DNA from: Candidatus Saccharimonadota bacterium
Lineage (GTDB): Bacteria > Patescibacteriota > Saccharimonadia > Saccharimonadales > UBA4665
NCBI GenBank assembly: GCA_963716945.1
Contig: OY970322.1
Span: 300,001 to 332,000, forward strand
Direction of reading: 5' to 3'
Length of the DNA: 32,000 nt
Shown: piece after piece, positions 5,840-32,000 of the stretch
How the letters are laid out: the number at the start of each line of letters is the position of its first letter
Numbering within the stretch: the first letter of the stretch is position 1
Position numbers and translations under genes: made by a program
Notes under the pieces: generated by a model
Database searches by the model: none
The model's input: only the letters and a program-made list of their open reading frames with translations
Told to the model about the DNA's origin: nothing

Positions 5840-5848
5840 AATGGAGCT

Positions 5849-9046: not shown

Positions 9047-9118
9047 TCGGGGGTGGCTCGGAGTATTTATACGTTTAATAATAACAGATTAGCTTGTGGC
9101 TCGCACCGGTGTCGTAGT

Positions 9119-11305: not shown

Positions 11306-11383
11306 TTGGGATATATTAAGACGCTCATGCTTGCGTTTTACGCTGAGGTTTATTACAGTCGGTTTAGTCTAAAGAGGTACCGT

Positions 11384-11917: not shown

Positions 11918-12031
11918 CCTCATTGAGCAAACCCGAGCAGCCGCTACCCGGTTGCAAATAGACGGTCTTTGGGGCACTATATTAGCAGCTGAGGCGGCAC
12001 GCCTGAAAATGAAAAACACCGGAGTAAAAGT

Positions 12032-12550: not shown

Positions 12551-15148
12551 TTACTGAATTACGGTGCCGCCTTTGATAGTGGTGCCGCCCTGTATCCTTA
12601 CCTCTTGGGGGGCCGTGGTGAAACTGTTAGTCGTCGAGTAGGCGCTGAAGCTGTTGCTACCCCCGGGGTCGATTGCCTTAGCCCTCAGGTAGTACGTGGT
12701 ATTGGGGGCGAGCACCCCCGGACTCACGGAGTACTGCCCCATAGTTGAATTGGCTTCTATCGTGCTTGTAGCATAGCCGGTGCCGCTGCCGGCATCCTGT
12801 TCGGCCCATCCGGACTGGCTAGCGGTTTGGTCAAAGCTGCCGCCGCCAGAAGCACAAGGCCAGGAATTGACAGGACACCACTCGACCACATATTGGACGT
12901 AATTGGAGAATGTGTCCGATGTTCGAAGCTGAATAAGAGGAGCATCCGAAATAGCAGTACTGCCGTTCGCCGGGTAGTAAATAATCGGTGCCTGCGGTGC
13001 TTGGGAGAAGGACTCCATCGATGGGTAGGTACAAGTCGAGGCGGCGCCATTAGTCGTGCAGTTGGTCGCTTCTGTGCCGCTGGTATTGAGTATCTGTTCA
13101 CGCAGGATTGGATTAAGGTTCGTCATGGACCCTCCAGAAACGCTAGGCCCATAATCGTAGCCGCGGAAATAGTAAGTCGTGCCTAGGGTTGCGCCGTTGT
13201 TTTGCAGCGTGTAGTCGTATTCCTGGACCGTACCGGAACTCTGTAAATCACCGGAGGCCGAAGCCGTGCCGTTGGTAACTTCATAACCTGCAGAGTTTGA
13301 GCCGTCCAAAAGTGTCGTTGACGAAAGCGTAGTGTTGTCAGCTACCCCGCCGGCGGCGTAACGCCAAATGGACCCGCTGCCCTGGGCTCCAACATCGGTC
13401 CAGACGCAGCTGCTGGAGTCTGGGCAACCGGCACCGGAGGAATACTGCAGTTTCTTGCGGGTGTCGCCCTCGCTGCCACCGCCTAGCTCGGCGTAGCTCA
13501 TCCTTAAGCGGACTATATTATTGGGCGTGACCTGCGGTGTGACGCCTTCGGGCGCTAACGGTACCTGCGGGTTGCCCGTCGCCCCTTCGTCATCGTAGAC
13601 CCGCCAGTTGAATGACCAGGTCGCGTAGGGCGTGTAATTGTAATCGTAGGCTTTTTGAATGTAGGTTTTGTTAGTAGTCTGGCCGGTGGTAGTATTGACC
13701 AGACTGGTCGACAGATTAGTTGTTATAAGGGTGCCCCAAGCGGAGCCGCTGTAGGTACGGGCGCGGAGCTTGCCGTCGCGGTCGGCCTGCATCATCGTTA
13801 AGATATCCGAGTTTGGGGAAGCTGATAACTCGTTGCCAACTATAATGTCCCCTGAAGTAGTCGTGAGTGCTGCCCAGGCCGTAAAGGTGGTGGGAACCCA
13901 AGACGACCAGTCCGGTTGCTGAGTGTTAGCATTCGCCGAAGCGCTAAATATTGCTTGCGGAGTACCGGAATGGGCTTTTTCCCAGACCGTACTGATATTC
14001 TGGCCGGCATCCTGGGCCATAGTCAGGTTGGTATAAGCTGTCCAGCCGACGGTCACGCCGTCGGTTTTCCAGATGTAGGGCGTGGCGGTTGCTGTGGACC
14101 CCACTGTCGTTGTCGAGCCATAGGCCACGATCATGCTCATACGGTTACTATGCGTATCGGATCCCACTCTGATCCATTGGGCGGCCGAGGATAGGGTAGC
14201 GATGGTCGTAGCACTGCTCCAACCGCTGCCGGTCGATGTTCTATAAGACAGGGCCGTGCCGTTGGCATAGACCGCCATTTCCATGCCGGACTCGCTTTCC
14301 CAGCCGATATCGAAGGACTGCGGCTCAACGTTGCCGCTATCGGTCGTGGCGACCGTGGCACCGCCGGTCGTCGTCAGTACCTGGCTATCGCTGCTGTTCC
14401 AGGAACTGCCGTTCCAGCTTATGGTGAATATATCCTGGTTGCTATCTTCGACGGCCATCAGGATATTGTTCGTCCTGGTGTCGTCGAACTGGCCGCCTTG
14501 CGGTACCAGCCTGACCCACTGCGGCGTACCGGTGAGAGTAGTTGTGCCGTCGCTAAGAGTAATGTTATTAACGCCGTTAGTCGGCGCGCAGTTCGACACC
14601 GGCCCCCAGCTTGTACCGTCATAAATGCAGTAATAAAGTTCGCCGGTGGTATTGCCGGCGTAGACGACCATAGCCCGGCCGGACTCCTGCTCATATGCTA
14701 TATCAAAGGCCCGGCTGACAGTACCGGAGCCGACAATCGTCTGGTTCCACATGTTAGTGCCCAGGTTGGCCGTTGCTGAACAGGTAGTGGTGCATTTGTC
14801 GACGTACAAGCTGCCGTTGTTAAGCTGGAACCCGACCAGTTTTTCGTTCCGCGTCGGCGACGCGCCGTTGACTACGAATTGAATGGCCGAGTTGGCCACC
14901 TGGGCCTGGGTGAAGCGCGTGCCGAAAGTTCCGGGGCTGCCGAAAGTGTAGCGGCTCATGCTGATACGGCCTCTGCTAGTCGTCGAGGTTGTGCTGCCTT
15001 GGCCCCATGATACGGTACCGAAGTTGCCCTGGAAGGCTGCCAAGGCGAATTGGAAGTAAAAGATAAGTCCGCCGGCTACCAAAACCACGATTAAAACCGC
15101 GAATAGCTTTGGCCGAGATAACTTCACCTTTTTTATATGTAGTCTCAT
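12551..15148 (-). CDS. Large membrane-anchored surface protein (865 aa): repeated beta-propeller-like blades, a beta-sandwich region and a C-terminal fibronectin-III-like domain
   Basis: N-terminal TM segment (LFAVLIVVLVAGGLIFYFQFALAAF). Recurring blade-like segments (FDIAYEQESGRAMVVYAG..YDGTSWG; FDIGWESESGMEMAVYANG..GSGWS; LTMMQADRDGKLRARTYSGSAWG). The C-terminus reads like FN3 (PQAPIIYYPANGSTAISDAPLIQL...PNTTYYLRAKAIDPGGSNSFSAYS). Thr/Ser/Gly-rich. Confidence 0.7.
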   Translation of the reverse strand: MRLHIKKVKLSRPKLFAVLIVVLVAGGLIFYFQFALAAFQGNFGTVSWGQGSTTSTTSRGRISMSRYTFGSPGTFGTRFTQAQVANSAIQFVVNGASPTRNEKLVGFQLNNGSLYVDKCTTTCSATANLGTNMWNQTIVGSGTVSRAFDIAYEQESGRAMVVYAGNTTGELYYCIYDGTSWGPVSNCAPTNGVNNITLSDGTTTLTGTPQWVRLVPQGGQFDDTRTNNILMAVEDSNQDIFTISWNGSSWNSSDSQVLTTTGGATVATTDSGNVEPQSFDIGWESESGMEMAVYANGTALSYRTSTGSGWSSATTIATLSSAAQWIRVGSDTHSNRMSMIVAYGSTTTVGSTATATPYIWKTDGVTVGWTAYTNLTMAQDAGQNISTVWEKAHSGTPQAIFSASANANTQQPDWSSWVPTTFTAWAALTTTSGDIIVGNELSASPNSDILTMMQADRDGKLRARTYSGSAWGTLITTNLSTSLVNTTTGQTTNKTYIQKAYDYNYTPYATWSFNWRVYDDEGATGNPQVPLAPEGVTPQVTPNNIVRLRMSYAELGGGSEGDTRKKLQYSSGAGCPDSSSCVWTDVGAQGSGSIWRYAAGGVADNTTLSSTTLLDGSNSAGYEVTNGTASASGDLQSSGTVQEYDYTLQNNGATLGTTYYFRGYDYGPSVSGGSMTNLNPILREQILNTSGTEATNCTTNGAASTCTYPSMESFSQAPQAPIIYYPANGSTAISDAPLIQLRTSDTFSNYVQYVVEWCPVNSWPCASGGGSFDQTASQSGWAEQDAGSGTGYATSTIEANSTMGQYSVSPGVLAPNTTYYLRAKAIDPGGSNSFSAYSTTNSFTTAPQEVRIQGGTTIKGGTVIQ

Positions 15149-15237: not shown

Positions 15238-15870
15238 ATGTTATTAGGTATGAGCAAAAAGGGAAAGCGCAGCACATTCGACCGCTACGGCGTCGATCAA
15301 ACAGCCGGTGTCGTGCAACCTGTGGCCGAGGCGAAAAAACGGCCAGCTGTAGCTGCCCGTTTAGCGGCCGTCAAACAGCTTAATAACAAACTTCTACCCG
15401 CAGTGACTGTAATTGTAGCCGTGGTCTTAGCTGCCGGAGCATACTTCTTATTCAAACCGACCCCCAAGCAGAACCCGAGCACCGCCCTCGGCCAATCAAT
15501 TGCCAAGCTGGTATCGATCCCGGCCTATTATCCCCAAAACTTGCCCGCCGGCTACACATATAATAATGACGCCCACATTATCAAAACCAACATTCTTTAT
15601 TTCTCGGTGACGGGACCGGGTAATCAGACCTTTTATGTTAGCCAGCAACCAATACCTGCCAGCTTCGACTTCGTGGGCTTCGATAAGAAATTTCTTAACC
15701 CCGACAATTTCAGCACCGACGCCGGGAGCTCAATTGCTGGGCAGGTCGGCGCCAATCTCATCGGCAGCATTCAGACAGATAAAAATACCTGGATAATCCT
15801 CAATACTGCCGGTACTAACTCTCTCACCGAACTCGAAACCGTTATCCGTTCACTTGAACTAGCCCAATAA
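15238..15870 (+). CDS. Membrane-anchored hypothetical protein (about 205-210 aa)
   Basis: Single TM segment (LLPAVTVIVAVVLAAGAYFLF) followed by an extracytoplasmic domain. Alternative start at 15250 (MSKKGK). No recognisable motif. Confidence 0.6.
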   Translation: MLLGMSKKGKRSTFDRYGVDQTAGVVQPVAEAKKRPAVAARLAAVKQLNNKLLPAVTVIVAVVLAAGAYFLFKPTPKQNPSTALGQSIAKLVSIPAYYPQNLPAGYTYNNDAHIIKTNILYFSVTGPGNQTFYVSQQPIPASFDFVGFDKKFLNPDNFSTDAGSSIAGQVGANLIGSIQTDKNTWIILNTAGTNSLTELETVIRSLELAQ

Positions 15871-15883: not shown

Positions 15884-16259
15884 ATGAATGGAATAAGCGG
15901 TGGTGCTAAAATCTACGCTATTGATAGCTATGGAGGGGAAGATGCTCAACGTCTTAGGTTATTTTGTAAGTTCGACTAAAAACCAAATAAAAATCATAAG
16001 AATATAAACTTTAGCGACTCAACTTTCGGGTCGAATGCTCAGTTTGAGAGTTCTGACTTAGCGGGAGCTGATTTAAGGGTGCCATAGTAGGGCCGGGTTT
16101 GTGCTTTGGAGGAACAGCTAACTTAAATAATGCGGATTTCTCCAACGCTACCTGTTTCACGGATAGTGTGAGTTTTACAAATACTAACTTTTCAAACGCA
16201 ACCATTGAAACAAACAGTGACAGCAACGGCAACACTTGCGTTGGACATCTGACACCCTA
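15884..16259 (+). pseudogene. Decayed pentapeptide-repeat protein gene (in-frame stop plus a frameshift)
   Basis: ATG 15884 opens MNGISGGAKIYAIDSYGGEDAQRLRLFCKFD, which meets TAA at 15977-15979. The same frame continues KPNKNHKNINFSDSTFGSNAQFESSDLAGADLRVP* (stop 16085-16087). A 1-nt shifted frame then continues ..GGTANLNNADFSNATCFTDSVSFTNTNFSNATIETNSDSNGNTCVGHLTP* and ends at 16257-16259. This is A(D/N)(L/F)xx pentapeptide periodicity. The region is visibly AT-rich compared with its flanks. Confidence 0.5.
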
Positions 16260-19200
16260 GTCACGCACGTTGTCCCCACTAGTGTTGTAGCCGCTCCATT
16301 GAATGTAGTCCACATAACAGTTCTGCGCAGTAGTAGTACTGGTGACACAGGAAGCTTCTGGGCCTAAGTTGTGTGTAGTACCCGGGTCAAAGGTAGTGCT
16401 GGTGTTAAAAGTATTGCCGGTCCCACCAATGCTGTAAACAAAGGTGATGCTGTTAGTCGCATTCACATGAATCTCAACTTCTGCCCAGGTATTAACTGCT
16501 AATGTGGTGGCAGTAGCACAAGTTGACGAGGTGCCGTTACCATAGCAATACTGTAGGTTGCCGCCTGTGTACTGCCACCAGGCGCCGCTGACCGGCGCTG
16601 TAGCACTAGTTTGATTGGTCCAGCCTGCAATCATGGTTCCGGTTGCAGTACTAACGGCAATATTAGACTTAAACACATCCCCCGTGCCAATTACCTCATT
16701 AAGGGTTCCAGCACCGGCACCGGTACCGCCCTCTGTCATAACACAACCGTGGCTGGCGGCTGCGGCGTCTGTGGTCAGTCTAAGCGTGCCAGGATGGTCA
16801 TGGTGAACCCCTGGCCCGACACCACTGGTGTTTTGGTTATAGGATACGGTGCAAGTAGAGCCAGTGCCTGTAAGCTGTGTAACATTCCAGCCTAGAGCAC
16901 CTACACCAACTTGGCTACCTGCACCAGCTGAGCCACCGAGGAATTCGTCTTCGAAATTGTAGGAACTTTCGATTTCGTTGATGCCGCAGGTTTGCCAGAG
17001 GCCGTTGGCACCACAGCGGAAGAGGCCGGCGTCGGCGTCGTAGTACATGGCGCCGTCTTCTTCGGTTGGCTCGCCGTTGCCGCCGGTGACCGGCTGATAG
17101 TTATCCAGGTCTAGGACAATCGGGTTGCTGCCGTGCGGGCTGTTGCCGGCGCCAATAGTGACGTCCGCGCTAGTGGTGGCCAGTTCCTGGTCGCCGCTGG
17201 TGTCTTGGATAGTTACGTTGCCGGAGTTGGCGACGCTGAATAGTGAGTTACCTGAGCTGCCTTGGTCGACGCTGAAGAGGGTGGCTACGCTGTTGCCGGC
17301 GTCGCCTTGGACGTTTAGGGTGCCGCGGGTCGTGTCCAGCCTGATTTCTGGCGAGCCGGCCGAGGAGTCGGTGTAGGCTTGCTGCAGGGTAGGGGTGATG
17401 TTAATCAGGTCGTTCCAGGTCGGGGTGCTGCCTTGGCAACCGCGGAGCGTGTTGGTGCTGGTGTTGTAGACGATGGCACCGGCGGTACAGGTTACGGGGT
17501 CGCCGGCGCTTTGGCCGAACTTGACGACACTCGAACCGCTGACTTGTACGATGCTGGACCCCGAGGTCAGGATGAGGTTGGAACTGGTGCCGCTTTGCAA
17601 AGTTAGCGAACCGGCAGTTGTTTGCCACACCGAGCTGGCGTTAGCTGTCATGGTTATGCTAGCCCCGGTGCCGGCCAAGATGCTGATCGGTCCGCTGCCG
17701 CTACCGACGGCTGTAGTGCCGCTATCAACCGAAATAGTACCGGTTGAGGTGCCGTCGTTGTAGGACAGGCTGATGTAGTGCTGGCTGGCGGTACCATCAA
17801 AGACTTTGAGCTGGTCACCGGCTGTATCGACTGTCAGAACGCTGAGCGAACTGATATTGCGGATGTTCAGGGCGGTAGCGGAGTTGGCCGCGTTCTGGAT
17901 GATTACACCGCCGATTGAACCGGTACCGATGGCGCTCCCGGCCTGGAGGGTAATGTTGCCGCCATTGCTGTTGCCGCCGCTGCCATTGCCATTCCCGGCA
18001 GTAATCGAAACCCCGCCGCCGTTGCCGCCGACTCCGGTACTGCTACCGGCTGCCGCAGTTATGGACACGCCGCCGCCGGCCGACCCGGCCGAAGCTGCCG
18101 CCGCGCCCCCCTGGATAGTAACCGTGCCCCCGGCCCCGGCAGTCGTGCCGCCGGTCCCGGCCGTTCCGCCTTTAAGAGTCAGGGCGCCGCCGCTGCCGCC
18201 GGTCCCGCCGGTACTGGTGACCGCGCCGCCGGTCCCGCCTTGGATAGTTATAGCGCCGCCGGTCCCGGCAACCGTAGCTGCCGCGCCGCTGCCGGTTTCC
18301 GCACCGCCCGTACCGGCCGTGAAGGTAAGGCCGCCGCCTATGCCGCCGGCTGCTGCCGCCGCCGTACTGGCTGTTGCACCGCCGTTGCCAGCCGTGAAGC
18401 TGAAATTGCCACCACTACCGCCGGTATTTGCTCCGCTAGTACCGCTGGCAGCGCCGCCGGCCCCGGTCGTTAATGAGATACCCGAGCCGGTGCCCGCTGT
18501 TTGGCCGGTCGTGCCGCTACTGGCGCCGCCGGCCACACCGGTAACGGATAGGATCGTGGTCGCGTTGGTGCCGTTCCCGGCTACTGAGCCTGGAGCTGTA
18601 CCCTGGATAACAACTTGGCCGTTGGTGCCGGTAGCGCCCGGCGCGCCAAGTGTCAGGTTGATATTGCCGCCGGCCGCGTTGCCTTGACCGGCCCCGGAAG
18701 TGAAGGTCAAAGCGCCGCCGGCCGCATTGCCGGCTGTGCCGGCCCCGGCCGTCAGATTTACGGCCCCGCCGCTGCCAGATGTAGAACCGCCGGCCCCGGC
18801 TTGGAGCGACAGGGTACCGCCTGCGCCGCTCGCTCCGCCGCTGCCGCCCTGAACCGTGAAGTTGCCGCCGGCCCCCGAAGCAGTGCCATTACCAGTAGTG
18901 AGCGTGATGGCGCCGCCGTTAGCAGTACCGTTACCGCCGGCCCCGGCATTGCCGGCCGCCAAGCTTAACGTACCGCCGGCCCCGGCCGTACCGGTCGCAC
19001 TCGTGACATTGCCGCCGGCCCCGCCTTGCAGGGTAAAGGTGCCCCCGGCTCCGCCGACATTCGCGCCGCTGGCTCCGTTAGCCGCACCGCCGGTTCCTGA
19101 AGTTAGCGTGATGACCGAACCGGCCCCTGCTGTCTGGCCAGTCGTACCGGAAGTCGCACCGCCGGCGGCGCCCGCGACCGTAAAGGCGGCGTTAGCCCCG

Positions 19201-22200
19201 GTCCCGTTGCCAGCAACCGAACCCGGCGCCGTGCCGGCAACGGTTACCGATCCTGTTCCGGACTGAAGAGCGATATTACCGCTGGCGTTCTGGATACTAA
19301 TAGCTGTGGCGTTGGCGTTGCCGATGCTGACTTGGCCGGTACTGCTACCGCCGTTAATCGAGGTATTGGAGTTAATGTTGTTGTTGATGTTCACGCCGCT
19401 GAGGCCTTGGATGGTTGTTGTTCCCCCCGTCGCCGACGCTCCCGTACCGATCGTAACGTTAGTCGTCCCGGCCACGTTAGTGTTACCGATGCCGATGGTT
19501 TGGGTATTGCCGGTATTGACTGACGTGGTGCCGATTTGGATCGGTAGGGAACCGACGCTCGTACCGATGTTTATGCCGCCGGTTGAACCGCCCTGGATAC
19601 TGACGGCCGTGTTGGTATTGGTGTTACCGACGTTAACAGTATTGGCGACACTGGAGTTAGTCCCGACCGAGATCGTCCCGCCGCCGCCGGCCTGAATACT
19701 GACCGCCCCCGAACCGGTGCCGCCATTGATGGTCGTCGTACTGGTACTGCCTAAGAGATTGCCGATAGCCACGATGTCGGTCGAGCCGGCAGTGTTGTTA
19801 TTGCCGATACCGATCGTCTGGTTAACGACGTTGCCGGCCGGCCCGTTGCCGATCTGGATAGTATTGCCGCCTATATTGCCGGTGCCGATGTTAATACCGG
19901 CGCCGCCTTGGACATTGACTGTCGTACTGCCGCTGATACTGCCAACGTTGACCGTATTGGCGCTAGTCGTCCCGACGGCGATCGTCCCGCCGCCGCCGGC
20001 CTGAATACTGACCGCCCCCGAACCGGTGCCGCCATTGATGGTCGTCGTACTGCCGCTGTTGGCCGCCGAACCGATGCTGACTACCTGGGCCGTAGTCCCG
20101 TTGCCGGTGTCGGCAATATGGACGGTCGACCCGATAGTCGCCGAACCGACGGCGCCAATGTTGACCGTATTGGCAGTCGTCGTAGCGACATTAACGGTGC
20201 CCGAACTGCCGCCTTGGATGTTAATGGTTGGACTGATTGAATTACCCAAGGCCAGGGTGCCTTGCGATTGGATGGTCGTACTGCCCCCCGTCGCCGACGC
20301 TCCCGTACCGATCGTAACGTTAGTCGTCCCGGCCACGTTAGTGTTACCGATGCCGATGGTTTGGGTATTGCCGGTATTGACTGACGTGGTGCCGATTTGG
20401 ATCGTGTTAGCCACGGCGTTGGCGCCCACGTTAAGCGTACCGCTGGCAGCCGTCTGGAGCGTAAGCGTACCGACCGCCTGAACGGTCGTATTACCGGCTG
20501 TTGCCCCGGTGAAGGCGCCGATGGACACGTTAGTCGTCCCGGCCGCCGTAGTGTTACCGATGCCGATAGTCTGGGTATTGCCGGTATTGGTAGCCGTCGT
20601 ACCAAGCTGGATAGTGTTGGCTACGGCTGTCGTCCCGACGGCGATCGTCCCGCCGCTGCCGGCCTGAATACTGACCGCCCCCGAACCGGTGCCGCCATTG
20701 ATGGTCGTCGTACTGCCGCTGTTGGCCGCCGAACCGATGCTGACTACCTGGGCCGTAGTCCCGTTGCCGGTGTCGGCAATATGGACGGTCGACCCGATAG
20801 TCGCCGAACCGACGGCGCCAATGTTGACCGTATTGGCAGTCGTCGTAGCGACATTAACGGTGCCCGAACTGCCGCCTTGGATGTTAATGGTTGGACTGAT
20901 TGAATTACCCAAGGCCAGGGTGCCTTGCGATTGGATGGTCGTACTGCCCCCCGTCGCCGACGCTCCCGTACCGATCGTAACGTTAGTCGTCCCGGCCACG
21001 TTAGTGTTACCGATGCCGATGGTTTGGGTATTGCCGGTATTGACTGACGTGGTGCCGATTTGGATCGGTAGGGAACCGACGCTCGTACCGATGTTTATGC
21101 CGCCGGTTGAACCGCCCTGGATACTGACGGCCGTGTTGGTATTGGTGTTACCGACGTTAACAGTATTGGCGACACTGGAGTTAGTCCCGACCGAGATCGT
21201 CCCGCCGCCGCCGGCCTGAATACTGACCGCCCCCGAACCGGTGCCGCCATTGATGGTCGTCGTACTGGTACTGCCTAAGAGATTGCCGATAGCCACGATG
21301 TCGGTCGAGCCGGCAGTGTTGTTATTGCCGATACCGATCGTCTGGTTAACGACGTTGCCGGCCGGCCCGTTGCCGATCTGGATAGTATTGCCGCCTATAT
21401 TGCCGGTGCCGATGTTAATACCGGCGCCGCCTTGGACATTGACTGTCGTACTGCCGCTGATACTGCCAACGTTGACCGTATTGGCGCTAGTCGTCCCGAC
21501 GGCGATCGTCCCGCCGCCGCCGGCCTGAATACTGACCGCCCCCGAACCGGTGCCGCCATTGATGGTCGTCGTACTGCCGCTGTTGGCCGCCGAACCGATG
21601 CTGACTACCTGGGCCGTAGTCCCGTTGCCGGTGTCGGCAATATGGACGGTCGACCCGATAGTCGCCGAACCGACGGCGCCAATGTTGACCGTATTGGCAG
21701 TCGTCGTAGCGACATTAACGGTGCCCGAACTGCCGCCTTGGATGTTAATGGTTGGACTGATTGAATTACCCAAGGCCAGGGTGCCTTGCGATTGGATGGT
21801 CGTACTGCCCCCCGTCGCCGACGCTCCCGTACCGATCGTAACGTTAGTCGTCCCGGCCACGTTAGTGTTACCGATGCCGATGGTTTGGGTATTGCCGGTA
21901 TTGACTGACGTGGTGCCGATTTGGATCGTGTTAGCCACGGCGTTGGCGCCCACGTTAAGCGTACCGCTGGCAGCCGTCTGGAGCGTAAGCGTACCGACCG
22001 CCTGAACGGTCGTATTACCGGCTGTTGCCCCGGTGAAGGCGCCGATGGACACGTTAGTCGTCCCGGCCGCCGTAGTGTTACCGATGCCGATAGTCTGGGT
22101 ATTGCCGGTATTGGTAGCCGTCGTACCAAGCTGGATAGTGTTGGCTACGGCTGTCGTCCCGACGGCGATCGTCCCGCCGCTGCCGGCCTGAATACTGACC

Positions 22201-24692
22201 GCCCCCGAACCGGTGCCGCCATTGATGGTCGTCGTACTGCCGCTGTTGGCCGCCGAACCGATGCTGACTACCTGGGCCGTAGTCCCGTTGCCGGTGTCGG
22301 CAATATGGACGGTCGACCCGATAGTCGCCGAACCGACGGCGCCAATGTTGACCGTATTGGCAGTCGTCGTAGCGACATTAACGGTGCCCGAACTGCCGCC
22401 TTGGATGTTAATGGTTGGACTGATTGAATTACCCAAGGCCAGGGTGCCTTGCGATTGGATGGTCGTACTGCCCCCCGTCGCCGACGCTCCCGTACCGATC
22501 GTAACGTTAGTCGTCCCGGCCACGTTAGTGTTACCGATGCCGATGGTTTGGGTATTGCCGGTATTGACTGACGTGGTGCCGATTTGGATCGGTAGGGAAC
22601 CGACGCTCGTACCGATGTTTATGCCGCCGGTTGAACCGCCCTGGATACTGACGGCCGTGTTGGTATTGGTGTTACCGACGTTAACAGTATTGGCGACACT
22701 GGAGTTAGTCCCGACCGAGATCGTCCCGCCGCCGCCGGCCTGAATACTGACCGCCCCCGAACCGGTGCCGCCATTGATGGTCGTCGTACTGGTACTGCCT
22801 AAGAGATTGCCGATAGCCACGATGTCGGTCGAGCCGGCAGTGTTGTTATTGCCGATACCGATCGTCTGGTTAACGACGTTGCCGGCCGGCCCGTTGCCGA
22901 TCTGGATAGTATTGCCGCCTATATTGCCGGTGCCGATGTTAATACCGGCGCCGCCTTGGACATTGACTGTCGTACTGCCGCTGATACTGCCAACGTTGAC
23001 CGTATTGGCGCTAGTCGTCCCGACGGCGATCGTCCCGCCGCCGCCGGCCTGAATACTGACCGCCCCCGAACCGGTGCCGCCATTGATGGTCGTCGTACTG
23101 CCGCTGTTGGCCGCCGAACCGATGCTGACTACCTGGGCCGTAGTCCCGTTGCCGGTGTCGGCAATATGGACGGTCGACCCGATAGTCGCCGAACCGACGG
23201 CGCCAATGTTGACCGTATTGGCAGTCGTCGTAGCGACATTAACGGTGCCCGAACTGCCGCCTTGGATGTTAATGGTTGGACTGATTGAATTACCCAAGGC
23301 CAGGGTGCCTTGCGATTGGATGGTCGTACTGCCCCCCGTCGCCGACGCTCCCGTACCGATCGTAACGTTAGTCGTCCCGGCCACGTTAGTGTTACCGATG
23401 CCGATGGTTTGGGTATTGCCGGTATTGACTGACGTGGTGCCGATTTGGATCGTGTTAGCCACGGCGTTGGCGCCCACGTTAAGCGTACCGCTGGCAGCCG
23501 TCTGGAGCGTAAGCGTACCGACCGCCTGAACGGTCGTATTACCGGCTGTTGCCCCGGTGAAGGCGCCGATGGACACGTTAGTCGTCCCGGCCGCCGTAGT
23601 GTTACCGATGCCGATAGTCTGGGTATTGCCGGTATTGGTAGCCGTCGTACCAAGCTGGATAGTGTTGGCTACGGCTGTCGTCCCGACCGAGACGGTGCCG
23701 CTGGCAGCCGTTTGGATAGAAGTGCTGCTGTTGCTTGATCCGCCGATAGTTATACTGGATGCCGTAGTCGTGCCAATAGAGACAGTGCCATTTGTCCCCG
23801 AACCATTCTTAACCCCGGCATCAATCGTGATATTGCCGCCGTTGCCGTTAGTCCCGCCACCGGCTCCGCCTTGCAGCACCAGGTTGCCGCCGGCCAAAGC
23901 ACTCGCGCCGCTGCCGGCGGCCCCGGCCGATAACGTCAATGAATTCCCGCCGGCCCCCGAGCCGGCCCCCGTCACCGAAATCGTATGGTTGGCATTGTCC
24001 CCGAACGCTATATTGCCGGAGTTGTCGAGCACGAACGCGTCGTTGCCGCCGGACTGCAAGTCCAACAGGTTGCCGGTGCCGGTTTTGTTGATATAAATAC
24101 TGTTCGTGCCGGACGAGGCGTCGGTTTGCAAGCCCTGCGCTATTTGTACGAACTGCGAACTGGACAAGCCGCCCAGCAGGCCGGAGTTAAGCGCGTAGGG
24201 CGCCGAGGTGAACGGCTGCATCGGCGTCATTTCGCCGTCGGGGCTGCACGAAGCGAACGGCGTACACGAAGCGCCCGTGCCGGCGATGTTCATCGACAGC
24301 CACAGGGTGCTCTGGTTCCAGTTGATATTCGAGCCGAACGGTGTAATCGAACCCAGCTCGACCGACAGGTAGCCGTTGACGACCTTGACGCCGTGCCCGG
24401 CGGCGTTGAGGTAATCTTCCGTCCATTTCAGCGAACCGGCCGGCGAACCGGTCGTGTCGCCGACGCTCTGGCCGTCGCCGTCCTGGTAGACCTTGAACTC
24501 GATGTTGTAGTAGCCGTCCGGCACGGTGGCGCCGGCCGAGTTAAGCAGCCGCCCTTGGAAGTTTATTTCCTGGTTGATACCGGTGGCCGCGTGGGCGGGC
24601 TTAGCCGAGAAAAACGAATAAACAAAAAACACGCCTAAAAAGACGCTGCACAGCAGTACCCAACGGCTTATACGGCATAAACCTGTTTTCAT
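16257..24692 (-). CDS. Giant repetitive surface protein (2811 aa), adhesin/fibre-like
   Basis: One uninterrupted 8.4-kb ORF. N-terminal signal/anchor (WVLLCSVFLGVFFVYSFFSAKPAHA). N-terminal globular domain (INFQGRLLNSAGATVPDGYYNIEFKVYQDG...). About 1.4 kaa of xTxxIGxxxxNTGNTQTIGIGNT-type short repeats, beta-helix/beta-roll-like, organised as a 508-aa tandem unit. A Gly-rich GGxGG block (..GAGGNFTVQGGSGGASGAGGTLSLQAGAGG..). Two Cys-bracketed knob motifs, then a C-terminal beta-sandwich (lectin-like) domain. Confidence 0.85.
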   Translation of the reverse strand: MKTGLCRISRWVLLCSVFLGVFFVYSFFSAKPAHAATGINQEINFQGRLLNSAGATVPDGYYNIEFKVYQDGDGQSVGDTTGSPAGSLKWTEDYLNAAGHGVKVVNGYLSVELGSITPFGSNINWNQSTLWLSMNIAGTGASCTPFASCSPDGEMTPMQPFTSAPYALNSGLLGGLSSSQFVQIAQGLQTDASSGTNSIYINKTGTGNLLDLQSGGNDAFVLDNSGNIAFGDNANHTISVTGAGSGAGGNSLTLSAGAAGSGASALAGGNLVLQGGAGGGTNGNGGNITIDAGVKNGSGTNGTVSIGTTTASSITIGGSSNSSTSIQTAASGTVSVGTTAVANTIQLGTTATNTGNTQTIGIGNTTAAGTTNVSIGAFTGATAGNTTVQAVGTLTLQTAASGTLNVGANAVANTIQIGTTSVNTGNTQTIGIGNTNVAGTTNVTIGTGASATGGSTTIQSQGTLALGNSISPTINIQGGSSGTVNVATTTANTVNIGAVGSATIGSTVHIADTGNGTTAQVVSIGSAANSGSTTTINGGTGSGAVSIQAGGGGTIAVGTTSANTVNVGSISGSTTVNVQGGAGINIGTGNIGGNTIQIGNGPAGNVVNQTIGIGNNNTAGSTDIVAIGNLLGSTSTTTINGGTGSGAVSIQAGGGGTISVGTNSSVANTVNVGNTNTNTAVSIQGGSTGGINIGTSVGSLPIQIGTTSVNTGNTQTIGIGNTNVAGTTNVTIGTGASATGGSTTIQSQGTLALGNSISPTINIQGGSSGTVNVATTTANTVNIGAVGSATIGSTVHIADTGNGTTAQVVSIGSAANSGSTTTINGGTGSGAVSIQAGSGGTIAVGTTAVANTIQLGTTATNTGNTQTIGIGNTTAAGTTNVSIGAFTGATAGNTTVQAVGTLTLQTAASGTLNVGANAVANTIQIGTTSVNTGNTQTIGIGNTNVAGTTNVTIGTGASATGGSTTIQSQGTLALGNSISPTINIQGGSSGTVNVATTTANTVNIGAVGSATIGSTVHIADTGNGTTAQVVSIGSAANSGSTTTINGGTGSGAVSIQAGGGGTIAVGTTSANTVNVGSISGSTTVNVQGGAGINIGTGNIGGNTIQIGNGPAGNVVNQTIGIGNNNTAGSTDIVAIGNLLGSTSTTTINGGTGSGAVSIQAGGGGTISVGTNSSVANTVNVGNTNTNTAVSIQGGSTGGINIGTSVGSLPIQIGTTSVNTGNTQTIGIGNTNVAGTTNVTIGTGASATGGSTTIQSQGTLALGNSISPTINIQGGSSGTVNVATTTANTVNIGAVGSATIGSTVHIADTGNGTTAQVVSIGSAANSGSTTTINGGTGSGAVSIQAGSGGTIAVGTTAVANTIQLGTTATNTGNTQTIGIGNTTAAGTTNVSIGAFTGATAGNTTVQAVGTLTLQTAASGTLNVGANAVANTIQIGTTSVNTGNTQTIGIGNTNVAGTTNVTIGTGASATGGSTTIQSQGTLALGNSISPTINIQGGSSGTVNVATTTANTVNIGAVGSATIGSTVHIADTGNGTTAQVVSIGSAANSGSTTTINGGTGSGAVSIQAGGGGTIAVGTTSANTVNVGSISGSTTVNVQGGAGINIGTGNIGGNTIQIGNGPAGNVVNQTIGIGNNNTAGSTDIVAIGNLLGSTSTTTINGGTGSGAVSIQAGGGGTISVGTNSSVANTVNVGNTNTNTAVSIQGGSTGGINIGTSVGSLPIQIGTTSVNTGNTQTIGIGNTNVAGTTNVTIGTGASATGGTTTIQGLSGVNINNNINSNTSINGGSSTGQVSIGNANATAISIQNASGNIALQSGTGSVTVAGTAPGSVAGNGTGANAAFTVAGAAGGATSGTTGQTAGAGSVITLTSGTGGAANGASGANVGGAGGTFTLQGGAGGNVTSATGTAGAGGTLSLAAGNAGAGGNGTANGGAITLTTGNGTASGAGGNFTVQGGSGGASGAGGTLSLQAGAGGSTSGSGGAVNLTAGAGTAGNAAGGALTFTSGAGQGNAAGGNINLTLGAPGATGTNGQVVIQGTAPGSVAGNGTNATTILSVTGVAGGASSGTTGQTAGTGSGISLTTGAGGAASGTSGANTGGSGGNFSFTAGNGGATASTAAAAAGGIGGGLTFTAGTGGAETGSGAAATVAGTGGAITIQGGTGGAVTSTGGTGGSGGALTLKGGTAGTGGTTAGAGGTVTIQGGAAAASAGSAGGGVSITAAAGSSTGVGGNGGGVSITAGNGNGSGGNSNGGNITLQAGSAIGTGSIGGVIIQNAANSATALNIRNISSLSVLTVDTAGDQLKVFDGTASQHYISLSYNDGTSTGTISVDSGTTAVGSGSGPISILAGTGASITMTANASSVWQTTAGSLTLQSGTSSNLILTSGSSIVQVSGSSVVKFGQSAGDPVTCTAGAIVYNTSTNTLRGCQGSTPTWNDLINITPTLQQAYTDSSAGSPEIRLDTTRGTLNVQGDAGNSVATLFSVDQGSSGNSLFSVANSGNVTIQDTSGDQELATTSADVTIGAGNSPHGSNPIVLDLDNYQPVTGGNGEPTEEDGAMYYDADAGLFRCGANGLWQTCGINEIESSYNFEDEFLGGSAGAGSQVGVGALGWNVTQLTGTGSTCTVSYNQNTSGVGPGVHHDHPGTLRLTTDAAAASHGCVMTEGGTGAGAGTLNEVIGTGDVFKSNIAVSTATGTMIAGWTNQTSATAPVSGAWWQYTGGNLQYCYGNGTSSTCATATTLAVNTWAEVEIHVNATNSITFVYSIGGTGNTFNTSTTFDPGTTHNLGPEASCVTSTTTAQNCYVDYIQWSGYNTSGDNVRD
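19423..23687 (-). repeat. Perfect 1524-bp (508-codon) in-frame tandem repeat, about 2.8 copies, inside the giant gene
   Basis: The sequence at x equals the sequence at x+1524 from 19423 until it diverges after 23687. All six-frame ORF translations recur identically at +1524 (19717/21241/22765; 20026/21550/23074; 20689/22213). Within each unit a block of about 0.4 kb occurs twice, at 663/861-bp spacing (for example 20026 vs 20689). Confidence 0.9.
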
Positions 24693-24773: not shown

Positions 24774-24802
24774 AGTATAAGCTTCATACCTGTTTTTGCC
24801 AA
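24774..24802 (-). promoter_or_regulatory. Sigma70-like promoter (TTGGCA-N17-TATACT) for the giant gene
   Basis: The minus strand reads TTGGCA aaaacaggtatgaagct TATACT. The predicted 5' UTR is about 75 nt, contains a cctc-gcgtgt-gagg hairpin and has no clear Shine-Dalgarno. Confidence 0.45.
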
Positions 24803-25000: not shown

Positions 25001-25450
25001 ATGGCAATGCCGACCTCCAAGAAGTACAAATCAAAACGGGCCGCGGAGGAGACGCTGAAGCGGTTTTTCGCGGCCAACCCGGGCTCGGATACGGTTTCGG
25101 TCGAAGAAATCTTCCAGGCCACCGGCCGCCACGGCAAACCGGCGCGCGCCAACATGGCCTGGCTGTCCAATAAGCTGACCGATCTGCGCTACCATGACCT
25201 AATCGATTCCGAATACTCCTACCAGGGTAAACGTCGCCTCAAGGGCATCAGCCTGTCGCTGGACGGCAAACGGGCGCTGGGCCGGGCCGGCAGCGGTCCG
25301 GCCGCCACGCCGGACCCCCAGCCCGGTAACCGCCCCGGGAGCGGCCAGGCGGTCTCTCTGGAAGACGCCTTGATGATCGTCAGCCAGCTGAAGCGGCGTT
25401 ACCCCGAGTTCGACATCGACCTGACCGTCAAACCCAAGAACAAGGCTTAA
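25001..25450 (+). CDS. Small basic protein (149 aa), possible winged-helix DNA-binding regulator
   Basis: Full ORF transcribed divergently from the giant gene. The N-terminal 100 aa read like a wHTH (VSVEEIFQATGRHGKPARANMAWLSNKLTDLRYHDLIDSEY..GKRRLKGISLSLDGKRAL). A Pro/Gly linker and a short C-terminal helix follow. The functional call is tentative. Confidence 0.55.
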   Translation: MAMPTSKKYKSKRAAEETLKRFFAANPGSDTVSVEEIFQATGRHGKPARANMAWLSNKLTDLRYHDLIDSEYSYQGKRRLKGISLSLDGKRALGRAGSGPAATPDPQPGNRPGSGQAVSLEDALMIVSQLKRRYPEFDIDLTVKPKNKA

Positions 25451-25496: not shown

Positions 25497-26492
25497 CTAA
25501 ACCTGGGCGTGGGGAATAGGCCCGAGCGGCGGGTTCTGGACCGGCACGGCAGCAGCCAAGAGGTGCTTCTCGCGGCGTTCGCCCATCCAGAAGCTGACCA
25601 CCAGGGTAGCGGCGATAGCGTAGAGGGGCCAGAGGACCAGCAGTTTGCTGGTTGCCGGCTTCGAGCCGGCGGTGCCGCCGGCTGTCAGGACGGCACTGGG
25701 CTGACCGTTGACGATGGCGGCGACGGTCAGGAAAGCTACCCGCTGCTGGCTGTCGGTAGCCTGCAGCGTAATCTGGTAGGTGCCGGGCTTCTGGTAGGTG
25801 TGGGAGGCGTTGAAGACGGTGTTGTCGCCGCGGGGAATGACTTGGTTGCTGGAATCACCCCACTCGACATTGACGGCGAACGGCTCGGTGCCGCCGATGA
25901 TAGTGACCGGCACGTTAAGCACCTGGCCGGGAAAAGTGCCGCGGTAAACGGCGTTGGTGTCCAATAGCAGCTGCGTACCGCTGAAGTTCAGCAGGCTGAG
26001 CGGCGCGTTAACCGGCGGCACGGCGTCATAAAACACGTTGACCGTCTTCGACACCGGCCCGGCCTGGTTAAGGTCGTCATAGACCTGGGCGGTGAGGCTG
26101 TTCTCGCCGTATAGCAGGTCTATCTGGAATGAGTAGGTGCCTTTGTTGTCACACACGCCGGAGCCGGCGAAAATGTTGTTCTTGTAGATCTCAACCAGCG
26201 TGCCCGACGGGCAGGTACCGGAGATCGTTATCGGCGAGCTGCTGAAGTGCTGCTGGTCGGCCGGCGAAGTGATGGTGGCGGCTACTTTGGGCGGTACGCC
26301 GGGGACGGTACCGGTCAGGCTGACCGAGTCGGATTGCGGCGGCGGGCTGGCGGCAAAAGTCGAAACGGAGAACATAACCAGTATCAGGCCCACGGCTAAA
26401 ACTAGACACGCCAGGGGGATGTAGGATGTGTGTTCGTGGGGCCGGAGGCGGCCGCTGTGTTTGTGTTGGCTTATTTTTAACGGACCGTACAT
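25497..26492 (-). CDS. Doubly membrane-anchored surface protein (331 aa) with Ig-like and PKD-like domains
   Basis: N-terminal basic His-rich motif KISQHKHSGRLRPHEHTSY followed by a TM segment (IPLACLVLAVGLILVMFSV). Ig-like segment (ITSPADQQHFSSSPITISGTCPSGTLVEIYKNN). PKD signature (VEWGDSSNQ...ASHTYQKPGTYQITLQATDSQ). C-terminal TM segment (LLVLWPLYAIAATLVVSFWM). Confidence 0.75.
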   Translation of the reverse strand: MYGPLKISQHKHSGRLRPHEHTSYIPLACLVLAVGLILVMFSVSTFAASPPPQSDSVSLTGTVPGVPPKVAATITSPADQQHFSSSPITISGTCPSGTLVEIYKNNIFAGSGVCDNKGTYSFQIDLLYGENSLTAQVYDDLNQAGPVSKTVNVFYDAVPPVNAPLSLLNFSGTQLLLDTNAVYRGTFPGQVLNVPVTIIGGTEPFAVNVEWGDSSNQVIPRGDNTVFNASHTYQKPGTYQITLQATDSQQRVAFLTVAAIVNGQPSAVLTAGGTAGSKPATSKLLVLWPLYAIAATLVVSFWMGERREKHLLAAAVPVQNPPLGPIPHAQV

Positions 26493-26568: not shown

Positions 26569-27603
26569 CTATTGCTGCGGGTTCGGGTCTCTAGGCGGCT
26601 GCTGCCGCTTCTGAGCCTGTTCCAGGATGCGGCGGTTGTAGCGGCGGATAGCGTAGCGCAGGATGAAGAAGGCGGCGATCAGCAGGACGATGATGATACC
26701 GATCGTGCGGTAAGGGATAACCCAGAAGACCAGGCTGGCCGTCAGGACTTTCTTGCTGGTGCCGTAGGTAACCTTCAGTTTGGCGGTGTAGCGTCCGAAC
26801 AGTTTCTTGTTGCCGATGACCGTCTTATCAAGCGGTTGGCTGAACTTGCGAATGCTCTGGGGCAGAATGTTTCCGGGGGGGACATTGACGTTGACGGCCC
26901 CCAGTTCTTTGCCGAACATATCGGTTACGGTTACCTGGCCGGTGGGCTGGACGTGGACGTTACCGGTGTTTTTGAAGCGTTCGACGAAGTTGACCGGGCC
27001 GGCCGAGAAGAAGGTACCGGTTTGGCCGTTGTGGTTTACCGAAAACTCCTGCACGTTGAGGTTCTCGGTAATCTTGCCGTTAACGGTCAGCAACACCAGC
27101 GCGCCCAGGCTGGCGGAAAGCGACACGCCGCTGCCTTGGAGCGACGGCGCGGTGGCGGTGAAACGGATAACGCCGTAGTGGCCGCCGGGCGAAGCGTTAG
27201 CCGGAATGTGAAAAGTTACCGGCAGGGTCTTAATCTGTTTGGGAATAAGCTGCAGGGTGGGCAAAGCCGCTACCCAGCCTTTCAGCGAGTAAGGGTCGTT
27301 GTCGTTATTGTTCAAAAGCACTTTTGGCGTACCGGTTTCGCCGTCGGCTACGAAATCGTTGACCTGGCCGGTAACGATCAGGTCGCCGCTGGAAATGTCG
27401 CGGATATAAATCTGGCTGTTTATGGTCTGGCCGGGGTTTACCGTCAGGTAGAGCAGGGGCGGCGCGATTTCGAGCGCCTGGCCGTTGTTGGCAGTGCTGG
27501 AAGGGGATGCCGCCGGGGTGGCTGCGAGAGCCGGGGCGGTCATCTCCAAGCAGAGCGCGATTAAGGAAGCGCCGGTTAGTATGAGTTTAGTAAGTTTCTG
27601 CAT
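26569..27603 (-). CDS. Signal-peptide + two-beta-domain + C-terminal-TM protein, architecture of DUF916/DUF3324 (WxL-interacting protein) family
   Basis: Signal peptide (LILTGASLIALCLEMTAPALAA). The first half reads LEIAPPLLYLTVNPGQTINSQIYIRDISSGDLIVTGQVNDF. The second half reads QVTVTDMFGKELGAVNVNVPPGNILPQSIRKFSQPL...GRYTAKLKVTYG. C-terminal TM anchor with a basic tail (VIPYRTIGIIIVLLIAAFFILRYAIRRYNRR). Only 4 nt separate it from the upstream paralog gene. Confidence 0.7.
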   Translation of the reverse strand: MQKLTKLILTGASLIALCLEMTAPALAATPAASPSSTANNGQALEIAPPLLYLTVNPGQTINSQIYIRDISSGDLIVTGQVNDFVADGETGTPKVLLNNNDNDPYSLKGWVAALPTLQLIPKQIKTLPVTFHIPANASPGGHYGVIRFTATAPSLQGSGVSLSASLGALVLLTVNGKITENLNVQEFSVNHNGQTGTFFSAGPVNFVERFKNTGNVHVQPTGQVTVTDMFGKELGAVNVNVPPGNILPQSIRKFSQPLDKTVIGNKKLFGRYTAKLKVTYGTSKKVLTASLVFWVIPYRTIGIIIVLLIAAFFILRYAIRRYNRRILEQAQKRQQPPRDPNPQQ

Positions 27604-31219: not shown

Positions 31220-31942
31220 TTAATAAGTACCGGTACACAATATCGTCTGGCCGCCGGTATAGTTACCGCCCGGCGTCAGGCTGCTGACGTTGACTATATA
31301 ACTTATGGTGTAGGTGGTCTGGCCGGAGCTTTTGGGGGCCGTAGCGATGGTGTCGCCGCTGTTGAACTGGTAGCTATTGGAGGTGTTGTAGCCAGCGGCC
31401 GCCGAGCCCGTGCCGAACTGGCCGTGGTCGGGGTTAAAGCCCAGCGAAGTCGGCAGCGTATTGGCTACCAGGTTGATGCCGAACTGTTCGACACCTGTCT
31501 GGGAGGGCGCGGCCGAGGCAATGCCGGAGATAACGTGCGCCCCGTTCGTCGGCGGGTTGCCAAAAATCTGGACGACGTAGCCGTAGCTGGTATAGTCGAG
31601 CACCTGGAAGCTCGAGGTCGCGGTCGCCGTGGTGCTTGGCGAGAAGTCGCCGAAGCTGACATTGGAAGAGTTAACGGCGAAGGCCAGCGCCGGGTCGCTG
31701 GTGGTGGTGTTGCCGGCATTGATCTGGAAGCTGGCCGAAGCCGAGTTCCCAATACCCAGGATGCCGGCCGAAGTCGAGGCTTGGTAGTCGGGCGACTGGG
31801 TATCGAGGATACTGTTGCCGCCGAGGGCGCTTTCTTCGAACTGGTAGTTGGTCGACTTAAGGGTATCGGCAAAAGCGGCCGACGCGGTGACCGCGACGGT
31901 GCAGACCACGACCACGGACAAACATAACCTCGGCTTCACCAT
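31220..31942 (-). CDS. Short paralog D (about 240 aa) of the same secreted family, first gene of the locus
   Basis: Preferred start is ATG 31940-31942 (MVKPRLCLSVVVVCTVAVTASAAFA|DTLKS, a good signal peptide). The ORF is open to 31990. It ends GGNYTGGQTILCTGTY-COOH, the same terminal pattern as A/B/C. A CAATAT -10-like box lies 6 nt upstream of the ATG. Confidence 0.7.
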   Translation of the reverse strand: MVKPRLCLSVVVVCTVAVTASAAFADTLKSTNYQFEESALGGNSILDTQSPDYQASTSAGILGIGNSASASFQINAGNTTTSDPALAFAVNSSNVSFGDFSPSTTATATSSFQVLDYTSYGYVVQIFGNPPTNGAHVISGIASAAPSQTGVEQFGINLVANTLPTSLGFNPDHGQFGTGSAAAGYNTSNSYQFNSGDTIATAPKSSGQTTYTISYIVNVSSLTPGGNYTGGQTILCTGTY

Positions 31943-32000
31943 ATCTTTATATTGTTGCTGAACCGGGGGTATTTTGCAAACCGCTAACACTTGGTCATGG

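Follow-up and report, generated by a model that had tools for sequence, protein, structure and literature searches.

A candidate MAT-like fibre adhesin with a lectin-like tip beside the pam operon of Saccharimonadales

Introduction

Two described systems stand closest to the gene considered here, a single 8.4-kb open reading frame (ORF) for a 2811-residue fibre protein in a Candidatus Saccharimonadota bacterium (GenBank assembly GCA_963716945.1, contig OY970322.1, forward-strand positions 300,001 to 332,000; this stretch of 32,000 nucleotides is the window referred to throughout, and positions are counted from its first letter). The first is the mosaic adhesive trimer (MAT) family of prey-recognition fibres in Bdellovibrio, whose N-terminal domain has no homologue in the PDB and has been proposed to anchor the fibre to the predator. 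A Bdellovibrio genome encodes 21 MATs with a typical length of ~1000 residues (Caulton et al. 2024, PMC10769870), and MATs are also listed in Oligoflexia, the Planctomycetes-Verrucomicrobia-Chlamydiae (PVC) group, Alpha- and Deltaproteobacteria, the Fibrobacteres-Chlorobi-Bacteroidetes (FCB) group and Omnitrophica, not in Patescibacteria (PMC10769870 Table S3). The second is the Pam pilus of the candidate phyla radiation (CPR). A recent preprint presents cryo-electron microscopy of donor-strand-exchange pili formed by PamA and PamB on the Gordonia parasite Ca. Mycosynbacter amalyticus, reports that these pili mediate host contact, and adds, in a single sentence, that the pam operon is consistently accompanied by a co-localised 'tail fibre-like protein' (Troman et al. 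2026, 10.64898/2026.03.03.709456). That protein is not analysed there: the preprint gives no domain analysis, MAT link, tip classes or tip exchange for it.

It is fairly probable that the window gene encodes a Sec-secreted, MAT-like fibre adhesin of an epibiotic member of the Saccharimonadales (TM7/CPR), with a glycan-binding tip for host contact. The protein and the MATs are built alike. In both, a conserved beta-rich N-domain without a PDB homologue comes directly after the signal peptide; a long, repetitive, beta-rich shaft follows, and exchangeable, independently folding tips that include lectin-type folds form the C-terminal end. Their producers live attached to other bacteria, and the two N-domains share profile similarity. 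The window fibre, in contrast to the MATs, comes from a monoderm CPR bacterium, is about 2.8 times the typical MAT length and has a shaft made of ~500-residue tandem modules. It appears to have a single gene in each genome, in a fixed place that closes the pam operon, whereas the 21 MAT genes are scattered, and the S74 chaperone-protease tips of MATs are found in none of 57 complete relatives. The pam-linked 'tail fibre-like protein' of the preprint lies in the same position, directly after pamR, and judged by this position the window fibre almost certainly belongs to the same family.

Three further groups of proteins invite comparison. Phage tail fibres and tailspikes share the conserved N-terminal attachment part, the fibrous repetitive shaft, the exchange of distal modules at a conserved junction and the compositional break found there. 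Unlike them, the window gene is chromosomal and outside any prophage, and its product is Sec-secreted, with no annotated PHROGs family and no significant match in BFVD. Trimeric autotransporter adhesins share short x-h-x-h-G strand-turn repeats (DIVAIGN and QTIGIGN in the window protein) and the logic of a fibre adhesin, but the window fibre has neither YadA domains nor a C-terminal beta-barrel. Saccharibacteria have no outer membrane. Finally, the tip shares its predicted fold with the SO2946-like/LamG/ConA superfamily (PF22237, PF13385, 2a5z), while the tip's own sequence has no Pfam match. SO2946 itself has no known function, and no ligand or metal site can be assigned to the window tip.

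Architecture of the fibre protein

The longest ORF of the window lies on the minus strand and runs from an ATG at 24692 to a stop codon at 16257-16259, through 2811 codons without an internal stop. Opposite-strand ORFs inside 16257-24692 recur at the same period as the repeats of the fibre and are thus by-products of those repeats. The gene, its layers from the N-terminus to the C-terminus and an upstream site are as follows.

16257..24692, minus strand: complete fibre gene, 2811 residues plus stop (ORF list and translation; giant intact relatives are known)
24588..24692, minus strand: signal peptide, residues 1-35, MKTGLCRISRW...AKPAHA|A, the protein's sole hydrophobic stretch
24078..24587, minus strand: conserved MAT-like beta-rich N-domain, residues 36-205 (hidden Markov model, E 4e-85)
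23673..24077, minus strand: neck, residues 206-340, Gly/Ser/Ala-rich strand-turn repeats (BLASTP alignments to relatives reach residues 317-417)
19423..23687, minus strand: perfect tandem array, 2.8 copies of a 1524-nt (508-residue) shaft module, residues ~336-1757 (period scan)
18003..19262, minus strand: Gly-rich shaft segment, residues ~1811-2230, GGxhxhxxGxG repeats (composition and autocorrelation)
17055..18002, minus strand: Thr/Ser-rich stalk, residues 2231-2546 (translation; conserved in P0067-P0070)
~17427-17507, minus strand: Cys-bracketed knob 1, C2402-C2419, within the stalk (translation)
16986..17054, minus strand: knob 2, residues 2547-2569, GAMYYDADAGLFRCGANGLWQTC, junction motif right before the tip, conserved in relatives
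16260..16985, minus strand: tip, residues 2570-2811 (242 residues), ConA/LamG-like (SO2946-like) beta-sandwich, recently exchanged (AlphaFold2 and Foldseek)
24774..24802, minus strand: promoter-like site TTGGCA-17-TATACT, ~80 nt upstream of the fibre ATG (consensus scan 10/12, pattern match only)

A sequence-only reading of the window had described a single 8.4-kb ORF with six layers. The ORF list and the translation bear this out on the minus strand, and every layer is present in the 2811-residue product. That reading had named two findings that would speak against it, an interrupting frameshift and membership in a well-known annotated family. The reading frame is continuous across the 2811 codons of this assembly, and domain searches of the whole protein and its pieces returned no such family: scans of the entire fibre and of five or six pieces against Pfam, NCBIfam and PHROGs gave nothing significant except a weak Bdello_MAT_N lead. 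Its Gly-rich zone, placed at roughly 18000-19260, falls by composition at 18003-19262; its Thr/Ser-rich stalk with two Cys-bracketed motifs corresponds to the pairs C2402/C2419 and C2560/C2569; and of its signal or anchor sequence the signal part stands, as a signal peptide with an AHA|A site.

The protein carries very little charge (D+E+K+R make up 3.1% of residues), and the familiar anchors are missing, as had been noted from the letters. Neither an LPx[TSA]G motif nor a C-terminal hydrophobic stretch occurs in it, and Pfam and NCBIfam scans of the whole protein and its pieces found no SLH, YadA head, stalk or anchor, or autotransporter domain. Wall anchoring through LPXTG or SLH was therefore rejected, the motif, the C-terminal hydrophobic stretch and any SLH match all being absent. 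Membership among the YadA-type trimeric autotransporter adhesins was likewise rejected, since no Pfam or NCBIfam domain of that kind appears in the whole protein or its pieces and the C-terminus is a soluble beta-sandwich. The earlier view that the means of attachment is unclear thus holds for the usual anchors; it gives way in that a likely answer is the conserved N-domain.

The N-terminal domain

The first 35 residues form a signal peptide with a basic n-region, a hydrophobic core and the AHA|A cleavage motif, and an AxA motif precedes the N-domain in homologues too. The domain that follows is predicted by AlphaFold2 to be beta-rich, with a predicted local distance difference test (pLDDT) score of ~90 for residues 36-160. 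A Foldseek search with this N-terminal model gave best E values of 0.28 against the PDB and 4.9e-3 against BFVD, neither of them significant. At E <= 1e-3 its profile retrieves 16,681 cluster representatives, and at E <= 1e-30 there are still 737; nearly all of the best 150 of the 16,681 have the start of the domain at residue ~35-45, directly behind the signal peptide. The neck is kept in relatives as well, with a hydrophobic periodicity of 10 residues.

The link to the MATs comes from the NCBIfam model NF053851, Bdello_MAT_N, which 31 of 43 scanned family members match with a best E of 2.5e-7; the window domain itself scores 18.6 bits (E 1.3e-3). Protein P0048 aligns co-linearly with positions 12-160 of the 162 in the model, and other members align, also co-linearly, with its first or last third. 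By sequence comparison the domain is thus read as a remote, superfamily-level homologue of Bdello_MAT_N that lies outside the Bdellovibrio subfamily, because the scores listed for individual members stay under the 60-bit cutoff of the model. The suggestion of the sequence-only reading that domains of this kind occur at the N-termini of large fibre or adhesin proteins fits these profile matches.

The C-terminal tip

Domain-wise structure prediction and Foldseek searches, which the same reading had recommended, gave different results for the two ends of the protein: nothing significant for the N-domain and ConA-type folds for the tip. An AlphaFold2 model of the last 302 residues, built on a 19-sequence alignment, has a mean pLDDT of 78.6 and a predicted template modelling score (pTM) of 0.76, with values of 85-95 in the core of the sandwich. 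Its first Foldseek match in the PDB is Shewanella SO2946 (2a5z; E 3.5e-7, template modelling score 0.64 on the target), followed by legume lectins and then by botulinum toxin receptor-binding domains and some ConA-fold glycosidases; the 201 PDB matches at E <= 1e-3 are mostly ConA-fold proteins. No Pfam model matches the window tip at E <= 1, and five of its homologues (P0074, P0080, P0083, P0084 and P0086) pass the thresholds of PF22237 SO2946-like_C or PF13385 Laminin_G_3. At the level of fold, the lectin- or ConA-like beta-sandwich of ~240 residues proposed earlier is therefore supported by the model, by Foldseek and by the Pfam matches of homologues. Glycan binding by the tip is suggested by this predicted fold. 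In a copy of the PDB that evidently lacked the Pam pilus structures 25PZ and 25QA, neither the profiles of the tip and the N-domain nor a pilin and the chaperone-like protein encoded upstream found a match by sequence.

The tip is set off by knob 2, a pair of cysteines (C2560/C2569) in a segment that the model renders as short hairpins. The corresponding motif, G[AGS]xYY...C...W..C, occurs in 42 of 58 complete proteins of the family and always lies ~170-190 or ~240 residues from the C-terminus.

The same SO2946/LamG-like tip and Cys knob also end shorter proteins (745-872 residues) that have no MAT-like N-domain. Carriers of the tip on other scaffolds are L090-L098, L101, L104-L106 and P0071-P0073; the last three, of 800-858 residues, have a probable membrane segment at their start, and P0071 also contains a DUF4082 domain. 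Different scaffolds thus share this tip as a module.

Relatives and tip exchange

Relatives were surveyed in one genome per GTDB species, which yielded 511 stretches; the locus counts given here refer to the best 80 of the 511. All 80 are from Saccharibacteria, each on a separate contig of a separate metagenome-assembled genome (MAG). They include 57 complete ORFs of 641-3492 residues with a median near 1360, while the other 23 end at a contig edge inside the gene. This comparison of orthologue lengths, which the sequence-only reading had called for, places the window protein among the giants of the family, together with L065 (3492 residues), L018 (3051) and the metagenomic L081 (at least 3639), so that its size is unusual in the family yet not unique. 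A search with the N-domain in a collection of 5.8 billion proteins retrieved 66 proteins, all of them of 341 residues or fewer. Those with a taxon name are all 'partial' hypothetical proteins: five come from MAGs of Candidatus Saccharimonadales or Saccharimonadia, and one bears the label Verrucomicrobiae. The exact 2811-residue protein had no match in the public protein collection. The gene is a systematic breakpoint of assemblies, cut short in 23 of 80, and its usual annotation is 'partial hypothetical protein'; MAG-based surveys therefore under-represent the family and will under-count and mis-size it.

The C-terminal ends of the family are diverse. Sorted by their last 230 residues, the 58 complete proteins, that of the window included, form at least five unrelated tip classes of 34, 10, 6, 2 and 2 members, and tip class does not track N-domain similarity. 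Among these 58 the window shares its class with L065 only. Six other tips match the carbohydrate-binding module CBM_4_9.

Tip exchange is clearest from two relatives retrieved with the tip profile, L086 and L081. L086 is a close relative whose flanking genes are 73-83% identical to those of the window. The identity of its fibre to that of the window reaches 87.9% over the Gly-rich zone, 79.4% over the stalk and 78.3% over knob 2, and drops to 38.8% in the tip. The more distant L081 has the reverse pattern, with 51.3% identity in the stalk and 72.7% in the tip. Composition changes at the same border: GC content at third codon positions (GC3) is 0.50 in the tip of the window fibre, against 0.79 in its N-domain, 0.74-0.87 in its stalk and knob 2, and 0.69-0.80 in the adjoining pam, YkuD and M14 genes. 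The L081 locus, which bears the closest tip, has 46% GC. The discordant identities of tip and shaft and the break in GC3 at the tip border point to replacement of the tip through recombination at the knob.

Shaft and repeat number

Residues ~336-1810 form a layer of strand-turn repeats rich in Thr, Gly, Asn and Ile. The ~1400 residues of short repeats described earlier are indeed there; their organisation is different from that description, as 2.8 perfect copies of a 1524-nt unit. In each 508-residue unit, ~40 strand-turn elements, 8-15 residues long, follow the pattern T-h-x-h-G (QTIGIGN, DIVAIGN, TVNVG); the unit is split into 221 and 287 residues, with a nested 453-nt sub-module at 663/861-nt spacing. 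The array was detected by a repeat search and a period scan; Tandem Repeats Finder, which handles periods of up to 500 nt, did not report the 1524-nt repeat. The Gly-rich segment that follows contains 32% Gly and 20% Ala, with periods of about 17-19 and about 50. Between residues 206 and 2510 there are ~185 strand-turn units of ~12.5 residues each. At 4.8 Å per beta layer, a rough estimate puts the shaft at ~30 nm as a monomeric three-sided solenoid and at up to ~90 nm as a triple beta-helix. The strand-turn periodicity fits an intertwined trimeric shaft without proving one. The likeness to left-handed beta-roll, YadA-head or beta-helix repeats noted earlier gains no confirmation from the monomer AlphaFold2 model, whose pLDDT is ~50 in this part, and YadA-type domains are not detected.

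The perfection of the array raises the question of whether the length is real. Short reads cannot count the copies of so large a perfect repeat, so that the figure of 2811 residues depends on the assembly. The gene itself could be genuine and the identical copies a product of collapse, expansion or over-polishing by the assembler, in which case the true length would differ or vary in the population. Neighbouring copies show 0 mismatches over 2741 compared positions, the L086 contig breaks inside the same array, and the truncated loci, the short database fragments (66 of 66) and the lack of the exact protein in the public collection described above would all fit such an origin. On the other hand, the frame is maintained through the whole array, and intact relatives of 2200-3600 residues or more exist in independent assemblies. 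Tandem modules are present there too, of ~501 residues in L081, 621 in L018 and 800 in L039; they have diverged, and modular expansion of the shaft is therefore real in the family. Identical tandem repeats are also common in bacterial surface proteins. An artefact of length is accordingly unlikely, although it keeps an appreciable chance. A degenerate DNA pattern derived from the repeat unit found no match among metagenome contigs.

The pam operon

Six co-oriented genes upstream of the fibre constitute a CPR pam operon, as identified by NCBIfam models.

31220..31990, minus strand: pamT, predicted tip pilin (NF058579, 272.8 bits, cutoff 240)
27608-28732, 28812-29930 and 30010-31149, minus strand: three Pam pilin paralogues (NF058581 and identity)
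26569..27603, minus strand: probable PamC/D-type membrane-anchored pilus chaperone, 344 residues, with a signal peptide and a C-terminal transmembrane segment (position and topology)
25497..26492, minus strand: pamR, RbmA-like pilus tether, directly upstream of the fibre and co-oriented (NF058578, 336.5 bits, cutoff 300)

Against a cutoff of 55 bits, the first and third pilin genes score 134.8 and 143.8 bits with NF058581 CPR_Pam_pilin_C, for which the scores span 134.8-158.3 bits overall, and the product of the middle one, 28812-29930, is 88.7% and 79.4% identical to the neighbouring pilins. The 344-residue protein matches no model; its position and topology, which agree with those of PamC/D in the preprint, make it a probable chaperone of the PamC/D type, and a gene of this kind is kept in 71 of the 80 loci. 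The order PamT and pilins, chaperone, PamR, fibre on one strand recurs in 58 of the 60 related loci with enough upstream sequence.

An assignment of the upstream cluster to a WxL/DUF916-type surface complex of Gram-positive bacteria was dropped, as it had no Pfam support and NCBIfam identified the pam operon.

Proposed mechanism and alternatives

These data suggest a model in which the fibre is secreted, held at one end and directed at the host with the other. The signal peptide would be cleaved at AHA|A, and the N-domain would then hold the fibre on the envelope of the producer or on a component of the Pam system such as PamR or the pilus, as the MAT analogy and the gene linkage suggest. The ~2300 residues of strand-turn repeats would make up a long shaft in the form of a beta-solenoid, probably an intertwined trimer, and the number of ~500-residue modules, a repeat that is plain in the sequence, would set the length of this shaft. 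The Cys-bracketed knob would join this shaft to the independently folding tip, whose ConA/LamG-like fold is seen in the model, and the tip may bind a glycan of the host surface. Exchange of tips between lineages by recombination at the knob would then retarget the fibre. The N-domain profile and the tip fold lend indirect support to the earlier suggestion of a long surface fibre with a lectin-like tip suited to host or prey attachment.

Several points weigh against this model. No individually listed family member reaches the 60-bit cutoff of NF053851, the best standing at 30.1 bits and the window well below it. There is one N-domain gene within the 32-kb window against 21 MATs in a Bdellovibrio genome; with a single gene here and 80 loci on 80 contigs and MAGs, the 'repertoire' logic of the MATs may not carry over. 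The ConA-like fold also serves glycoside hydrolases and other binding domains, so that glycan binding follows from the fold as an inference. The monomer AlphaFold2 model of the shaft repeats shows short strands with a pLDDT of ~50, and the assembler may have mis-counted the perfect 1524-nt repeats. In the part of the M. amalyticus proteome table that the preprint displays, the fibre is not listed (10.64898/2026.03.03.709456). The polarity could even be reversed, with the tip on the producer's own wall.

This last point leads to a quite different role, that of a self-directed structural fibre. Here the variable C-terminus would bind the producer's own wall polysaccharide, extracellular polymeric substances or matrix, and the fibre would serve, together with the RbmA-like PamR, as a coat or biofilm scaffold. 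PamR does resemble the matrix scaffold protein RbmA, LamG and ConA domains bind many polysaccharides, the gene is present as one copy per locus instead of a repertoire, and the very low charge recalls some coat proteins. Yet it is the N-domain that forms the conserved end of the protein and the tip that is rapidly exchanged. A ligand on the producer itself should stay stable within a lineage, whereas close orthologues differ most at the tip, and the MAT precedent places the conserved N-domain next to the cell. A self-directed fibre is therefore improbable.

The fold of the tip would also be compatible with an enzyme, a GH16- or GH43-like glycanase (glycoside hydrolase families 16 and 43) that would degrade a polysaccharide of the host envelope much as phage tailspike depolymerases do. 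Foldseek lists the GH16 beta-glucanase 1gbg, a GH43 xylosidase, a galactocerebrosidase and a sialidase among its matches, and the domain begins almost invariably with a (D/E)(E/D)F motif, which reads FEDEF in the window protein. However, SO2946 and lectins, not enzymes, match best, and the Pfam families of the homologues are of the binding type. GH16 catalysis in particular was rejected, a regular-expression search having found no ExDx(x)E catalytic motif in the entire fibre protein. An enzyme at the tip is very doubtful.

A phage or tailocin tail fibre from a prophage remnant, to which the preprint's name 'tail fibre-like' and weak, non-significant similarities in BFVD (best E 4.9e-3) to minor tail proteins and fibre proteins might point, is ruled out for practical purposes by context, PHROGs and signal peptide: the window holds no phage genes and the neighbours are pam and cell-wall genes, 58 of 60 loci have the gene in the same place beside the pam operon, PHROGs gave no match except one family of unknown function (E 0.0056), and virion fibres lack a Sec signal peptide.

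The model of a host-directed MAT-like adhesin can be carried further, to a tentative proposal that has a low probability of being right. The fibre would set the host range of pam-bearing Saccharibacteria and would be a physical component of the Pam apparatus, with the N-domain docked on PamR at the base of the pilus or on the pilus itself. Horizontal tip swaps at the knob would direct the epibiont to new hosts, and gain or loss of perfect 508-residue modules would tune the reach of the tip. The apparatus would then be a CPR hybrid of a donor-strand-exchange pilus and a receptor-binding protein of the MAT or tail-fibre type.

Significance

Host recognition by CPR bacteria (Patescibacteria) has so far implicated type IV pili, Pam pili and a few glycan-binding proteins, and a transposon sequencing (Tn-seq) paper on Southlakia mentions other essential glycan-binding adhesins, not this fibre family. 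Beyond the Pam preprint and the MAT paper, a search for literature on giant proteins or fibres in Saccharibacteria returned nothing specific. MAT- or tail-fibre-like adhesins with exchangeable tips are already known, and the present family had been glimpsed beside the pam operon. The homology of a CPR fibre to the MAT N-domain, its tip classes and their replacement, and a giant, perfectly repeated shaft were not found in the literature searched.

For the step that confers host specificity in ultrasmall CPR bacteria, this fibre is a concrete and testable candidate, and the family occurs in hundreds of surveyed species genomes (511 stretches). Should the model hold, the MAT principle would extend from diderm predators to monoderm epibionts, and MAT-type fibres would be linked to a donor-strand pilus system. 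The tip class could then predict the host range of uncultured Saccharibacteria from metagenomes.

Neighbouring genes

Two genes downstream of the fibre are linked to its tip class.

15238..15870, plus strand: 210-residue membrane protein, downstream of the fibre (tip-class linkage)
12551..15148, minus strand: 865-residue secreted Thr/Ser/Gly-rich protein, downstream (tip-class linkage)

Both lie downstream in L081, L085 and L086, and the short contigs L082, L083 and L093 carry the 210-residue gene without its partner. Across the 80 N-domain loci, nothing matches the 865-residue gene, and the 210-residue gene has a single weak match, in L078. The GC3 of the 210-residue gene is low, at 0.56. The pair is possibly a tip-linked accessory cassette that travels with LamG-tipped fibres.

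Between pamR and the fibre, an 800-nt gap holds a basic 149-residue ORF on the opposite strand (25001-25450, plus strand) with no family match. It looks like a lineage-specific insertion, because pamR ends ~120 nt ahead of the fibre start in related loci.

The pilin genes are mosaics of one another. The outer pair is 70.9% identical; 30010-31149 and 28812-29930 share an identical 568 nt in their 3' halves, and 28812-29930 and 27608-28732 share an identical 187-nt 5' end that includes the signal peptide. These identical stretches suggest recent gene conversion among the paralogues.

In Supplementary Table 1 of the Pam preprint (10.64898/2026.03.03.709456), 'pamC' is given as QHN42421.1 (119 kDa), next to pil genes and far from the operon QHN43268-43274. 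The expected PamC position is occupied by QHN43268.1 (36.5 kDa, 'hypothetical'), and the label on QHN42421.1 is probably a slip.

Farther downstream, the regions 233-7736 and 11306-12517 contain eight ORFs of 161-563 residues without a Pfam match at E <= 1e-3; one of them, the 161-residue ORF at 12032-12517 (plus strand), is conserved downstream of the fibre in 33 of the 80 loci. Peptidoglycan-remodelling genes also lie near the fibre locus: a YkuD L,D-transpeptidase with a PG_binding_4 domain at 7751-9046 (minus strand) adjoins a gene at 9023-11305 (plus strand) for a 760-residue protein with Big_5 and M14 zinc carboxypeptidase domains, and the M14 gene is 83% identical in L086.

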